Source: a virus
Taxonomy: Duplodnaviria > Heunggongvirae > Uroviricota > Caudoviricetes
Direction: 5' to 3' (one strand)
IMG/VR virus record: IMGVR_UViG_2740892442_000004
Length of the DNA stretch: 64,000 bases
Below, in pieces: positions 20,559 to 24,625 of this stretch. The notes below the pieces were generated by a model that saw nothing but the letters and a program-made list of their open reading frames with translations, did not search any database and was not told the DNA's origin. Position 1 is the first letter of the stretch, and the number at the start of each line of letters is the position of its first letter. Made by a program: the position numbers and the translations under genes.

Positions 20559-20770
20559 TCGTATTAAGTAAACGGGAGAAGGAAACGCTTCATGAAATCA
20601 GTAAGTGGCCGGAGTTCCCTGAGTACTGGAAGCCTAAAACGCGAGCTAAGTTAGAGCGTTTAGGGTTGGTTGCAAACGTTTCTGAAACGTGGTGTTCGGC
20701 CAACTACCAGTTAACTGATAAAGGGAAAGTATTGCTACAGCAATTAGTAGAATCAGGAGCGTTAAAATGA
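20555..20770 (+). CDS. Hypothetical small protein
   Basis: 71-aa ORF overlapping the ligase stop; no motif. Confidence 0.35.
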   Translation: MIVLSKREKETLHEISKWPEFPEYWKPKTRAKLERLGLVANVSETWCSANYQLTDKGKVLLQQLVESGALK

Positions 20771-20919
20771 TTCCATACATCTCATTAGCTTTTATGGGTG
20801 GCTTCCTTATCGGCTTCGGCATCTGTCGTGATTTAATTAAGCAGGAACTTAAAACCAAAACACTGTGCATCGGAAAGCGTGTGTATCGGGTAGTTCATGA
20901 AACAAAGGTTAGAAAATGA
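20767..20919 (+). CDS. Hypothetical small membrane protein (MIPYISL...)
   Basis: 50-aa ORF, hydrophobic N-terminus, ATGA overlap with flanking genes; its first 18 nt recur at 21777 and 24592. Confidence 0.3.
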   Translation: MIPYISLAFMGGFLIGFGICRDLIKQELKTKTLCIGKRVYRVVHETKVRK

Positions 20920-21206
20920 GCAATTTAACTTCTTGGGACTGGTGGTTGGCCACCTATTTCTTAGCGGCCGGAGTCGCATTCGCCTTTTACGTAGGTCAGT
21001 TAGTCGTAAAACTGTTGCTGATTAAATTTGCTAGTCATAAACGTATCGATGATGGTCTGTGGCGTCTTGGCACCCTGGTGGAAACTCGCTACGGGCAACT
21101 TAAGGAGAACGAAACCATTACTATCCAGGCGAAACGATTCACTGCCACCATCACAAGAACACCTAGTCGTAGAGTGGCCTTGATCAAAAAAGTCACAACC
21201 GAATAA
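20916..21206 (+). CDS. Hypothetical membrane protein
   Basis: 96 aa, N-terminal TM helix WLATYFLAAGVAFAFYVGQLV. Confidence 0.4.
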   Translation: MSNLTSWDWWLATYFLAAGVAFAFYVGQLVVKLLLIKFASHKRIDDGLWRLGTLVETRYGQLKENETITIQAKRFTATITRTPSRRVALIKKVTTE

Positions 21207-21346
21207 AAACATCACGATAAGTATTTACTTACTTATCTTTTATGTATAAGATGACTTTGTTTTCGTTGAGACGCGACTGTTTGAACTTAAATACAAGTGC
21301 AAACGAAGAAGTCTATCTGGCAGTAGCCTAATAAGCCAAACACCAG

Positions 21347-21512
21347 CGAGGTCAGTTTCCAGCCTCGTTACCGAAATGGGACACACTGAGCGAGTGTGAT
21401 TGCAGAACGCAGGAGGGAACATGAGTGTTCCCTCCGATGAAGTAACAGAATGGGCGGTTGGTATATTTTCAACTCCATATGACTCCCGGATTCTTAGCCA
21501 CTGACCGCCCAT
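21347..21512 (+). ncRNA. Candidate structured RNA: four consecutive perfect hairpins
   Basis: CGAGG..CCTCG (21347-21367), CACACT..AGTGTG (21382-21398), GGAGGGAAC..GTTCCCTCC (21412-21435), ATGGGCGGT..ACCGCCCAT (21450-21512); no credible ORF. Confidence 0.3.
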
Positions 21513-21596
21513 CCTGTTACGTCATTTTGTTCAATTATGTCGTTTATACTGGGTTAAAAAGCGGCGACGTAGCCCGGCTGGTATGGTTAGCCAGCA

Positions 21597-21718
21597 CACA
21601 ACGTTGAGGCCATTACATTTTTATCAATTCTAAGGTTCTATTCACAGAGATACCGGCGAGCGTTGATATGTAACATGTTGGGCAAACATTCAATCGGAGT
21701 AGTGGCCTCAACGTTGTG
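21597..21718 (+). ncRNA. Long hairpin element E1 (16-bp perfect stem, about 90-nt loop)
   Basis: CACAACGTTGAGGCCA ... TGGCCTCAACGTTGTG; same terminal CACAAC/GTTGTG signature as elements E2-E4. Confidence 0.35.
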
Positions 21719-21984
21719 AAGACGGGATTGTTGTGTAGGTTTAACCACTGTTGCCATTGGTGCCTGTTTTCACAACAAATGATTCCATACATCACATTGT
21801 ATAAATTACAAAGTAGGTGCTGTCCTCAGAAACATCATCTACTTAAAGATTTTGCCTTCTACTATTGAGCGAAGTCGAAAGCGTCTGGCACTAACGAAAA
21901 GTGCAAGTAGCGGTGCGTTTCCTGGCAGAAACTAAACCGTCGCGATTGGCACTGTTGAGTAATAAATACTGGCAGTGCTGAATT

Positions 21985-22059
21985 GATGGTGTAGCTCAGC
22001 GGTAGAGCAGTTGGCTGTTAACCAACTGGTCGGTGGTTCGAATCCACCCACCATCGCCA
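21985..22059 (+). tRNA. tRNA-Asn (anticodon GTT)
   Basis: Hand-folded cloverleaf: acceptor GATGGTG/CACCATC, D-arm GCTC..GAGC, anticodon stem GTTGG/CCAAC with loop CTGTTAA, T-arm GGTGG-TTCGAAT-CCACC, encoded CCA. Confidence 0.85.
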
Positions 22060-22064
22060 ATTTA

Positions 22065-22151
22065 GGGGAGTTAGTCCGTAGAGGTAGCGGTGTAGACTGT
22101 AAATCTACTGTCATGGCGACTCGGGTGGTTCGACTCCATCACTCCCCACCA
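22065..22151 (+). tRNA. tRNA-Tyr (anticodon GTA), long variable arm
   Basis: Acceptor GGGGAGT/ACTCCCC, anticodon stem GTAGA/TCTAC with loop CTGTAAA, long variable arm, T-loop TTCGACT, encoded CCA; D-arm pairing less clean. Confidence 0.7.
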
Positions 22152-22155
22152 AATT

Positions 22156-22638: not shown

Positions 22639-22640
22639 GA

Positions 22641-22718
22641 CACAGCGTTGAGCGGTTTGGCCTTTTAATCAACTCGATTAAGACTCCGCTAACATAAACC
22701 AGACCGCTCAACGCTGTG
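22641..22718 (+). ncRNA. Long hairpin element E4, 2 nt after tRNA-Ser
   Basis: CACAGCGTTGAGCGGTtTGG ... CCAgACCGCTCAACGCTGTG; 20-bp stem with one U-G wobble in plus-strand RNA. Confidence 0.35.
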
Positions 22719-22793
22719 ATAGATAATTACGGCAGACGTTCTTAACCATAGCTTGCTAACATCCTAGCAACACTTTTTTTCAGCGCAAAATTC

Positions 22794-22816
22794 AAAGGGG
22801 CTTCGGCCCCTTTTTT
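22794..22816. terminator. Rho-independent terminator (usable in both directions)
   Basis: AAAGGGGCTTCGGCCCCTTTTTT, GC hairpin with flanking A/T runs; lies between the tRNA cluster and the minus-strand AT-rich gene. Confidence 0.7.
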
Positions 22817-22831
22817 GTTGAACAGTGCAAT

Positions 22832-24094
22832 TTACTTTGCATAGTCGCCCAATTTTAATATTTCGCGCTTATATTCATTAACCATGCTACTGGATTCAGT
22901 ATAAATTCGATTTAAAAGATTATCGTTATCTTTATTCTCATTTATCTTAATGAGTGATAATTTATATTCATAGTCATCAAATGCCACAATCAAATGGTGG
23001 CCTGGGATTATATCTTCGTCACTCTTGAAGTATATATCTTCAAGTATGTAATCTAGTTGATTAGATTTTCTTTTCTCGATGTAATCTTCAGCCATAGCTA
23101 TTACATCATTCCTGTCATTTAACCTGTTTTTTTCGGAAGGCACATCTTCGTAATGTTGCACGATTGAACAACCAATAAGGCGTGGGATGTAAACGTCAAA
23201 ATGAGTAACTCTATCATTCGCGGTTTTAAGTAGTTCCTCAAAGTAGTTTCTTACATGTAAAGGCAACTTCTCAAAGTAATCATTAATTATAGGAGAACAA
23301 GGAGTTTTATAATTCATAAGAACCGACGGTACGAGCTTTGGGTCTCGAAACATCCAGTCCCTTTTAACGTCCGATGGAACATAATAACTTTTAATGATAT
23401 TATCAAAATAATTTATCATTCGAGATTTGAATATTTTGTTGAATCTAAGGTTTATGAATGCATCCAGATAAGGCATATCTGAATAAGCATCATCAAAAAA
23501 TATTTCATCATTGAAAAAATCATATTTATTTAATAAACAACACAGTTTTCCCGAATTAATATGTTCACAATAATCGATCTTTAATCCAAAGATAGCAATG
23601 ATCAACTTCATCTGAGGTGGGATTTTGAAAATTAATTGTGACACATACGCTCTTTTTTCCTTTAGACATTCCCCATCAATATAAAATGAACTATCCACAT
23701 ACTCAAAAATATTAATAATATGCTTCACATACTGTATTACCTCATGCTGTTTTACCAATGGGTAATATAGTCTATTTAACTCATCGCTGTTTAAATTAAT
23801 TTTGCGTTTATCGATAATTTGTTTTGCAAGAAGACATAGCTCATCATGTTGATTTAATAAGGAATCAAACCATTGTTTAAATGCACTCTTTCGCATTTCG
23901 AACAATGATTCTGTTGTTAATTGAAGGGCTGAAAAAGCTGCTTTTGCACTTTTTCTCGCTTCGTAGGCATTCCATGCTGTTGCTATAAAAGCAAATGCTG
24001 TAGCCAATGTTCCAACAATTTGACCATTTAAAACAACCCAATCCCAAAAAATCACGGTGAGCAGTAGTATAATAATGAAAATTAAAAAAGGCAT
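22832..24094 (-). CDS. Hypothetical membrane-anchored protein on an AT-rich cargo segment (candidate abortive-infection/exclusion effector)
   Basis: 420 aa; two N-terminal TM helices (FLIFIIILLLTVIFWDWVV; IVGTLATAFAFIATAW) then a ~340-aa Asn/Lys/Tyr-rich soluble domain. Sampled stretches are ~28-30% GC versus ~58% in a sampled stretch of the ligase gene. Sits between tRNAs and integrase. Confidence 0.5.
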   Translation of the reverse strand: MPFLIFIIILLLTVIFWDWVVLNGQIVGTLATAFAFIATAWNAYEARKSAKAAFSALQLTTESLFEMRKSAFKQWFDSLLNQHDELCLLAKQIIDKRKINLNSDELNRLYYPLVKQHEVIQYVKHIINIFEYVDSSFYIDGECLKEKRAYVSQLIFKIPPQMKLIIAIFGLKIDYCEHINSGKLCCLLNKYDFFNDEIFFDDAYSDMPYLDAFINLRFNKIFKSRMINYFDNIIKSYYVPSDVKRDWMFRDPKLVPSVLMNYKTPCSPIINDYFEKLPLHVRNYFEELLKTANDRVTHFDVYIPRLIGCSIVQHYEDVPSEKNRLNDRNDVIAMAEDYIEKRKSNQLDYILEDIYFKSDEDIIPGHHLIVAFDDYEYKLSLIKINENKDNDNLLNRIYTESSSMVNEYKREILKLGDYAK

Positions 24095-24268
24095 GTATGT
24101 ATTTCACTCTACTAACTATAAAATATTAGGGTAATGTTAACCAAACAATGCCTTAATTAATAGATTGATCGAGGCTTTAATAGCTTTATAATGCAGACTG
24201 CAAAGATAAGTATGGACATACCTATCTTCTTTGTGAGTAAAGTTGCATATCAATTCTATGAGGTAACA

Positions 24269-24514
24269 ATGACGATCACTATCTACGGACGAGATAACTG
24301 CTCATACTGCAAACGTGCGGTCGAGCTGGCGAAGCAACTAAAGGGACATGGCTACGGTGATTATGAGTACATCGACATCACCACTGCCGGTATCGACAAG
24401 GAAAAACTAAGTGAAATTGTTGGTAAACCGGTAGAGACTATCCCCCAGGTGCTGATCGATGGCCAGCCGATTGGCGGATACACAGAACTGGCTGCATACG
24501 TCAGCACCCTCTGA
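24269..24514 (+). CDS. Glutaredoxin / NrdH-like redoxin
   Basis: MTITIYGRDNCSYCKRAVELAK with CxxC active site and GAGG ribosome-binding site; about 81 aa. Confidence 0.8.
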   Translation: MTITIYGRDNCSYCKRAVELAKQLKGHGYGDYEYIDITTAGIDKEKLSEIVGKPVETIPQVLIDGQPIGGYTELAAYVSTL

Positions 24515-24520
24515 TTTTAA

Positions 24521-24547
24521 CGGCTCACAGGAGCCGTTTTTATTCCC
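24521..24547 (+). terminator. Rho-independent terminator
   Basis: AACGGCTC-acag-GAGCCGTT followed by TTTTATT. Confidence 0.65.
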
Positions 24548-24594
24548 ACCAAACTCACTCCCATTTCCCTTAAAATTCAAAAAACAACGTCAAA

Positions 24595-24625
24595 ATGATT
24601 CCATACCTACTATGTATGGAATCAT
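24595..24625. promoter_or_regulatory. 12-7-12 perfect inverted repeat, candidate recombinase core site
   Basis: ATGATTCCATAC-ctactat-GTATGGAATCAT, about 100 bp upstream of the integrase gene; the left arm also occurs at 20767 and 21779. Confidence 0.4.

Follow-up and report, generated by a model that had tools for sequence, protein, structure and literature searches.

The question raised by this locus is what a short sequence, repeated around a block of transfer RNA (tRNA) genes and cargo, has to do with the tyrosine recombinase (integrase) gene beside which two of its copies form a palindrome. The window, which is the whole stretch of 64,000 nucleotides (nt) analysed here (IMG/VR record IMGVR_UViG_2740892442_000004), represents an SSU5-like phage-plasmid of Escherichia coli, whose whole plasmid measures 114 kb. 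A preliminary description of the window suggested that repeated gene-start fragments bracket a cassette assembled or mobilised by site-specific recombination and noted that one of them forms a palindrome with the geometry of a tyrosine recombinase core site. Comparative sequence analysis, on which the whole of this study is based, indicates with high confidence that the palindrome is the core site of the adjacent integrase. A role of this site in multimer resolution and exchange has about an even chance of being correct, and a function of the remaining single copies as integrase-binding sites is proposed more tentatively, at somewhat less than even. As a whole, the explanation composed of a core site, a resolution module and accessory single copies is moderately favoured.

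The palindrome and the adjacent integrase

The 12-mer ATGATTCCATAC occurs in five exact copies, at 20767 (plus strand), 21779 (plus), 24595 (plus), 24614 (minus) and 30644 (minus). The copies at 24595 and 24614 together form the 12-7-12 palindrome ATGATTCCATAC-ctactat-GTATGGAATCAT, and the other three (copies 1, 2 and 5) stand singly. The initially described repeats and inverse copy were recovered with the same sequence, with AAAATGATTCCATAC at 20764–20778 and 24592–24606 and CAAATGATTCCATAC at 21776–21790; the fifth exact copy (30644–30655, minus strand, within the 1172-codon dnaE gene) had been overlooked. The repetition is not a product of chance, as was originally judged. The 15-mer at two or fewer mismatches gives five matches against 0.29 expected, a number that none of 100 shuffles reached, and simple arithmetic gives an expectation of ~0.008 for the exact 12-mer in 2 × 64 kb. 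Outside the window, the plasmid (50 kb) has no copy at one or fewer mismatches, and all five copies of the 114-kb replicon are confined to 10 kb. A scan of IMG/VR with the bare 15-mer was dominated by chance matches in unrelated contigs.

The single copies have 15 nt in common (ATGATTCCATACATC), and the palindrome arms share the 12-mer only. Copy 1 and the dnaE copy have 19 nt in common, though their strands and reading frames differ; the shared unit is therefore not a paralogous gene start, and the term gene-start fragment does not apply to it. The 29-codon open reading frame (ORF) once assigned to copy 2 at 21779 likewise finds no support, since its reading frame is not conserved and the alignment exhibits frame-breaking indels right after the motif.

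The palindrome, its left flank and the integrase gene occupy the following positions.

24595–24625, no strand assigned: putative core recombination site, consisting of two perfect inverted 12-bp arms ATGATTCCATAC and the 7-bp spacer CTACTAT
24570–24594, no strand assigned: weakly conserved A/T-rich left flank, beginning with ttaaaattcaaaaaac; family consensus A-R-A-W-T-T, then AAA
24725–25827, plus strand: tyrosine recombinase (integrase) gene, split by a 1-nt deletion into ORFs 24725–25540 and 25540–25827

The palindrome is located 99 bp ahead of the integrase ATG (24725), in agreement with the first estimate of about 100 bp. A pattern search for the exact arms with any 7-nt spacer retrieved 101 IMG/VR contigs, in which an integrase homologue of 59–100% identity starts 45–101 bp to the right of the palindrome wherever the fetched DNA suffices; the exceptions to this count are three short loci (L064, L066 and L080) whose fetched DNA is too short. 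In an independent set of loci retrieved through dnaE, the palindrome is present in all integrase-positive loci and absent in the two integrase-less ones, SSU5 (L004) and L151. When loci were found by the integrase protein alone in species-representative genomes, 26 of 29 contained an upstream palindrome with a 7-bp spacer. Locus sets retrieved by motif-containing patterns inflate apparent invariance, and the integrase-protein search, the BLAST searches and a count anchored on ORF96 (given below) are free of this bias or much less affected by it.

Within the palindrome, the arms never vary, and the spacer is found in 11 variants, which comprise CTACTAT, CTATTAA, TTGGTAG, TTGTAAG, TTATATA, TATGTAA, TCTTTAG, TCCTTAG, CTATAAA and flipped versions. 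The spacer is flipped between near-identical plasmids (ATAGTAG in PhiR41_1, L005, versus CTACTAT in L048), and loci L050 and L189 contain TTAATAG, the flipped counterpart of the CTATTAA group. Such inversion could arise through hairpin template switching or a recombinase-related event. The type of arm follows the protein. Arms of sequence ATGATTCCATAC accompany integrases of 57–100% identity, and homologues at 47–52% identity (Pantoea, Rahnella, Erwinia and Hafnia) use the arms ATGACTCCAGAC and GTCTGGAGTCAT. The latter palindrome, ATGACTCCAGAC-ttaWtag-GTCTGGAGTCAT, contains two substitutions, each of which is mirrored in the second arm, and has similar spacers (ttaatag and ttattag). The combination of fixed arms and a free spacer with arm changes that track the protein is the signature of a recombinase core site; the operator of a general regulator or an RNA hairpin would not be expected to generate this pattern. 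The tyrosine recombinase core site suggested at the outset is borne out by strict co-occurrence with the integrase, arm co-variation, variable spacers and a homology switch at the left arm, which is described below.

The functional site appears to be larger than 31 bp because weak conservation across the family extends over ~25 nt left of the arm. Across 51 independent flanks, the information content reaches 0.7–1.0 bit at approximately −25 to −20 and −15 to −13 and amounts to ~0.1–0.3 further out. The A/T-rich left flank is also found at the Pantoea and Chimaeribacter loci and is possibly an accessory or bending element of the site. A terminator scan did not identify the palindrome as a terminator. 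Its use as a replication origin or terminus is unsupported, given that the guanine-cytosine (GC) skew exhibits no switch nearby.

The integrase gene of the window is split because of a single missing nucleotide. Window positions 20400–26400 are essentially identical to plasmid pMB3825A_2 (NZ_CP103696.1) except for this deletion, in which one C is missing from the CCC run at ~25503–25505; the integrase of NZ_CP103696.1 is intact (367 aa). A further difference between the two sequences is found upstream, at window 18736. The split gene represents either a pseudogene or a sequencing error. The integrase matches the PF00589 domain at residues 172–320 (E = 2.9e-10; 40.6 bits versus a cutoff of 27.1), and its R184/R185, R284, H307 and Y316 residues, which are invariant in eight integrase homologues, are the presumed catalytic residues. 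The central domain PF22022 scores 22.8 bits, under the cutoff of 27. In the NCBIfam comparison, the integrase aligns to positions 137–393 of the 413-position model PRK09692 with a score of 33.9 bits versus a cutoff of 434. Pfam detected no DUF4102-type N-terminal arm-binding domain, and the first 70 residues are without assignment. PDB searches by protein sequence and by profile identified no relative among solved structures.

The region between the palindrome and the integrase contains two predicted regulatory features, whose promoter elements were called by consensus reading only.

24640–24698, plus strand: predicted integrase promoter region, with a −10-like TACTTT at 24640–24645, and TTGATC (24651–24656) and TAATAT (24674–24679) separated by 17 nt
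24679–24698: perfect LexA (SOS) box TACTGTTTACTTATACAGTA, overlapping the −10 of the predicted integrase promoter

The CTG-N10-CAG position is kept in all 44 distinct palindrome-to-integrase spacers with integrases of at least 82% identity, and the inner bases drift. The LexA box is missing from lineages at 47–61% identity. In the main SSU5-like lineages, a LexA-repressed promoter would cause the recombinase to rise in the SOS response. A −10-like hexamer (TACTTT, TATTTT, TATGCT or TAGAAT) is found 14–16 nt past the right arm in all lineages, and its position beside the right arm suggests autoregulation.

Plasmid-only distribution and the homology switch

Among 5426 complete E. coli genomes, 248 contain the integrase, at 250 places in total, each of which is on a plasmid; no chromosomal place was found. 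The dnaE gene of the family is present in 243 E. coli genomes, a number close to that for the integrase, which is thus near-universal in a non-integrating element. Homologues of the integrase with the palindrome also stand alone amid metabolic genes on contigs of ~110–690 kb from Pantoea, Rahnella and Chimaeribacter, which may be large plasmids. The integrase and its putative site appear to be a portable, always extrachromosomal module. SSU5 and L151 are without the integrase, the XRE gene and the palindrome, and SSU5 is also without ORF70. The deletion of the module in these two is recent because their dnaE genes differ by just 0–0.3% from those of integrase-positive relatives.

The genes around the palindrome are ordered as ligase, ORF71, ORF50, ORF96, a hairpin and tRNA region, cargo, glutaredoxin, palindrome and integrase, followed on the right by an XRE regulator gene on the opposite strand, ORF70, cobT-like, cobS-like and dnaE. 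Along this order, the left arm is the exact point at which homology and phylogeny switch, which is the behaviour of a recombination junction. In every comparison, the right homology block starts at window 24576–24594 and includes the integrase and XRE genes. On the left, a conserved block spans 20544–22060, and all relatives are collinear straight across copies 1 and 2. The variable cargo extends from 22060, the 3' end of the tRNA-Asn gene, to the palindrome (~24594) and is not delimited by the repeats. The distance and order from the integrase to dnaE are constant, and no inversions were seen.

The left side of the palindrome is exchanged independently of the right side. The palindrome has 65 distinct left flanks, and plasmids whose integrase side matches the window at 99% identity or more exhibit at least seven unrelated left sides. 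One right-flank cluster joins seven left clusters, and left cluster 2 is common to three right clusters. Loci L033 and L091 are 99.7–100% identical to the window over 1.5 kb on the right, and their left 1.1 kb is unrelated to the window and instead matches, at 92–94% identity, plasmids that reach only 76% identity on the right. Of 40 listed E. coli plasmid matches, eight start at query position 33–35, which corresponds to the left-arm edge.

In the proposed mechanism, one integrase monomer would bind each 12-bp arm, and strands would be exchanged across the 7-bp spacer in a loxP-like manner. The most likely job of the reaction would be to resolve plasmid multimers. As a by-product, cointegrates between related plasmids with the same site would be formed and resolved, which would explain reshuffled cargo with a breakpoint exactly at the arm. 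The plasmid-only location, near-universal presence and stand-alone modules argue for a plasmid-maintenance recombinase rather than a lysogeny integrase.

Several observations weigh against this proposal or parts of it. The window's own integrase is frameshifted. The weak conservation of ~25 nt to the left of the arm means that the true junction may lie ~25 nt further out, and a sharp boundary could also be expected if deletions that enter an essential element are lost. Sites with the spacers CTACTAT and CTATTAA should recombine poorly, yet L033 resembles a hybrid of this kind. Neither 12-mer was found in any relevant paper in the searchable literature, in which papers on SSU5, Cyrano, pMT1 and phage-plasmids name the recombinase and give no site. 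Regarding the single copies, integrase modules outside SSU5 backbones are without them within 10 kb, and what ties these copies to the integrase is the identity of their sequence. The single copies also persist in the integrase-less SSU5 and L151; this persistence says little because the integrase loss is recent.

SSU5-like phage-plasmids are common in clinical Enterobacterales, and ~4.5% of complete E. coli genomes carry the integrase. No target of this persistent tyrosine recombinase is described in the searchable literature, and the palindrome is a candidate for it. Such a site would bear on the upkeep of plasmid monomers, the reshuffling of cargo at one fixed point and SOS control of the recombinase. 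The two arm types, ATGATTCCATAC and ATGACTCCAGAC, offer two predicted lox-type recombinase-site pairs that are naturally orthogonal. Related plasmids contain an ISEcp1-blaCTX-M insertion ~3.3 kb left of the palindrome, with ORF96 on one side and the tRNA leader on the other. In several of them the gene is blaCTX-M-55, as at 1284–3674 of L314 (NZ_CP047004.1). The ISEcp1-blaCTX-M insertions of the relatives are not at any 12-mer copy and represent transposition events.

Single copies outside the palindrome

The three single copies are situated in different genetic contexts.

20767–20781, plus strand: putative half-site 1, ATGATTCCATACATC, which overlaps the start codon and codons 2–5 (MIPYI) of the conserved 50-aa ORF50 (phrog_6302)
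21779–21793, plus strand: putative half-site 2, within the non-coding tRNA-array leader, with a hairpin on either side
30641–30655, minus strand: putative half-site 3, within dnaE codons 84–89 (..R/G-C-M-E-S-L..), antisense to the gene

The single copies are conserved at the nucleotide level. The ORF96-anchored count covered 54 distinct sequences, of which 50 contain an exact copy 1 and 50 an exact copy 2; among the deviations are a TAC-to-TAT change and one mismatch in the integrase-less SSU5. Copy 2 is the sole invariant block in a nine-lineage alignment with a mean column identity of 60%. A comparison of 67 distinct dnaE sequences over their first 900 nt, at a divergence of up to 24%, gave TGTATGGAATCATT (30643–30656) as the longest stretch without any change. 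Third codon positions of dnaE are invariant in 12.7% of cases overall, and the three degenerate ones in the 12-mer (TGT, GAA and TCA) are unchanged in all 67 sequences. The dnaE copy is present in every dnaE-bearing locus whose fetched DNA covers the position.

None of the single copies has a partner arm. At the 7-bp spacing, a second arm read from the sequence matches at 0–3 of 12 bases for copies 1 and 5; for copy 2, the best match is 6 of 12 and requires an 8-bp spacer. The single copies lie 2.8, 3.8 and 6.0 kb away from the core and all point toward the palindrome, an orientation that is inherited with synteny. A scan predicted no sigma-70-like promoter or terminator at these copies. Around the Pantoea and Rahnella integrases, no single copies of the ATGACTCCAGAC type were found within 10 kb. 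Since single copies are missing around modules outside SSU5 backbones, they appear to be unneeded for the basic reaction.

Each single 15-mer could bind one monomer at most and would for this reason not be a crossover site. The single 15-mers may instead be accessory or regulatory integrase-binding sites that are kept by selection. In a more speculative and rather unlikely extension, SOS-made recombinase monomers on the ORF50 start, the tRNA leader and dnaE would couple core recombination to the replication and tRNA control of the element, or would form polar barriers or guides in the surroundings of the resolution site. If this were true, a site-specific recombinase would double as a dispersed sequence-specific regulator with operators written into coding sequences. 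Conserved half-sites in genes are unusual, and if bound, they would imply a recombinase acting far from its crossover site. The dispersed conserved half-sites in coding sequence would be what is new here, and the core site would be of a well-known kind.

The single copies were also considered as insertion scars. Their orientation (+ + core −) is the reverse of that of inserted-circle flanks, and one of them lies inside dnaE; this possibility was rejected. A near-copy of the motif, GATGTATGGAATCAA, occurs at +606 in the integrase gene, where it encodes the residues DVWNQ, in loci L186–L188 (Kluyvera and Yersinia pestis). It was rejected as a sixth site because it is codon-driven and varies between lineages, and it is probably incidental.

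Alternative explanations and related systems

In the originally suggested arrangement, the repeats bracket a block of tRNA genes, cargo and glutaredoxin that is inserted, excised or exchanged by the integrase. The expected variation was observed when relatives were compared, in that the cargo from tRNA-Asn to the palindrome differs among them, but the variable segment begins at 22060, not at 21779, and no breakpoint occurs at copies 1 or 2. These copies are single arms without a second arm in one collinear block (20544–22060), deletion junctions with copy 1 or 2 are absent from the 65 left flanks of the palindrome, the distance and order from the integrase to dnaE are constant without inversions, and the fifth copy sits inside an essential gene. 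With one complete site only, and no breakpoint at copies 1 and 2, the locus also differs from a site-bounded cassette of the integron or pdif type. One plasmid speaks for exchange at a single copy. PhiR41_1 contains an orphan ATGATTCCATACATCA at 2113–2128, a match far too long for chance, in 6.4 kb of foreign DNA beside an insertion sequence (IS) fragment. The foreign DNA replaced the ligase-to-glutaredoxin stretch, and the flanks of the orphan match no related plasmid; the motif either has been maintained by selection or, in this one instance, served as a junction. Taken together, mobilisation of a cassette between the repeats is quite unlikely. Even less probable is the use of the palindrome as an attP site for integration into the host chromosome, as known for classical P4-type integrases at tRNA genes. 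The catalytic and central domains are nearest those of P4/CP4-57-type integrases, the spacers, as read, fit the tRNA anticodon-loop pattern Y-T-NNN-R-N, and a tRNA array is nearby. However, none of the 250 places in the 5426 complete E. coli genomes is chromosomal, an arm-binding domain was undetected, the two arms show perfect symmetry, and hybrid sites of the attL/attR type were not observed.

The remaining alternatives dissociate some or all copies from the integrase. The motif could be the operator of another regulator (the XRE repressor or a backbone protein) that occupies the three isolated copies singly and the palindrome as a dimer. P1 C1 operators are asymmetric and scattered, and a 15-nt asymmetric site distributed over 10 kb resembles them; moreover, the palindrome is upstream of a promoter, and the single copies survive in SSU5 and L151 without the integrase and the XRE gene. 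This survival carries less weight in view of the recent integrase loss. The palindrome also accompanies the integrase in replicons of Pantoea, Rahnella and Chimaeribacter that have neither SSU5 genes nor an XRE neighbour, and the arms co-vary with the integrase. Furthermore, the XRE-ORF70 intergenic region has its own GGTAAG/CTTACC repeat and no copy of the 12-mer, and no sigma-70-like promoter was predicted at the single copies. An operator of this kind is accordingly rated as unlikely. A role at the RNA level, in which GAUGUAUGGAAUCAU in the dnaE mRNA pairs with the ORF50 start region and the tRNA-leader RNA and tunes translation or processing, would make use of 15-nt perfect complementarity between opposite-sense transcripts that is conserved across lineages, with copy 1 covering a start codon and copy 2 lying between hairpins in a probably abundant leader. 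Such pairing leaves the 12/12 identity with an integrase-linked DNA palindrome upstream of a promoter unexplained; no Rfam match was found, and the sequence is invariant rather than co-varying, as would be expected for protein recognition. It is considered very improbable. Finally, the single copies could be functionless relics or look-alikes fixed by coding constraint. Copy 1 and the dnaE copy are located in conserved codons (MIPYI and CMESL), and the near-copy GATGTATGGAATCAA in the integrase gene (DVWNQ) is clearly codon-driven and lineage-variable. Coding constraint does not account for the constancy of the TGT, GAA and TCA third positions in 67 sequences versus 12.7% invariance overall or for copy 2, which is non-coding and the only invariant block of its region, and three extra exact 12-mers in 114 kb are not due to chance. 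This explanation is improbable.

The integrase and its predicted core site would work like Cre-loxP, without being a member of that family by sequence. As in Cre-loxP of P1 (and Dre-rox and VCre-VloxP), a tyrosine recombinase, here one in which no arm-binding domain was detected, lies beside a putative site of its own with perfect inverted arms (13 bp in loxP; 12–13 bp here). The spacer is short and asymmetric in either case (8 bp in loxP; 7 bp here). Both systems reside on a plasmid prophage, and the presumed role is multimer resolution or cyclisation. Unlike in Cre-loxP, the promoter here contains an SOS box, extra single arms are located elsewhere, and the catalytic and central domains are nearest the P4/CP4-57 type; the integrase has no detectable sequence similarity to Cre or any solved recombinase.

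The nearest precedent for the use of one motif both in a crossover core and in separate single copies is the TnpI-IRS system. TnpI of Tn4430 and Tn5401 uses the same 12–14-bp motif as an inverted-pair core and as additional single accessory or regulatory copies, and its site and the promoter of the recombinase gene overlap. In that system, the accessory repeats are within ~100 bp of the core or in transposon ends, whereas the single copies here are kilobases away, two of them inside coding sequences, and the replicon is a phage-plasmid, not a transposon. Within ~100 bp of the core, no single copy was found here, and only the weak A/T-rich motif is present within 25 bp. The resemblance to TnpI-IRS would be functional and not one of membership.

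XerC/D sites (cer and psi) and Acinetobacter pdif modules share with the palindrome a short inverted-arm site with a 6–8-bp spacer and, as proposed here, multimer resolution and the marking of borders of exchangeable modules. These systems use host Xer proteins, 11-6-11 sites and modules between two full sites, whereas here the recombinase is plasmid-encoded, one full site is present, and the other cargo border is the end of a tRNA gene. P4-type (CP4-57-like) integrases provide the best profile match and have in common the C-terminal motif VYDRHDYMDEMR, as read from the translation, and a 7-bp overlap region. The label P4-type integrase, which had been attached to the gene, is loosely appropriate in this sense of nearest profile; it does not extend to an N-terminal arm-binding domain, which was undetected, or to chromosomal integration, and the core here is perfectly symmetric.

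Relatives of the window include the phages Cyrano, PhiR41_1 and SSU5 and the Klebsiella plasmid pJN2-26. At window 21590–22740, several long hairpins closed by CACAAC...GTTGTG are found among and before four tRNA genes (Asn, Tyr, Thr and Ser). An Rfam search of 20000–31500 in evalue mode matched the four tRNAs only and assigned no family to the hairpins. The complement of tRNAs and hairpins differs from relative to relative. The main cargo gene of the window (22832–24094, minus strand) is AT-rich (39% GC) and encodes a 420-aa protein of phrog_18168 without a Pfam match; in its place, relatives contain PhoH, phosphodiesterase or fimbria-like genes. Between the XRE gene and ORF70 (window 26209–26460), GGTAAG/CTTACC repeats, including the palindrome GGTAAGTGCTTACC at ~26240–26253, are probably operators of the XRE protein.

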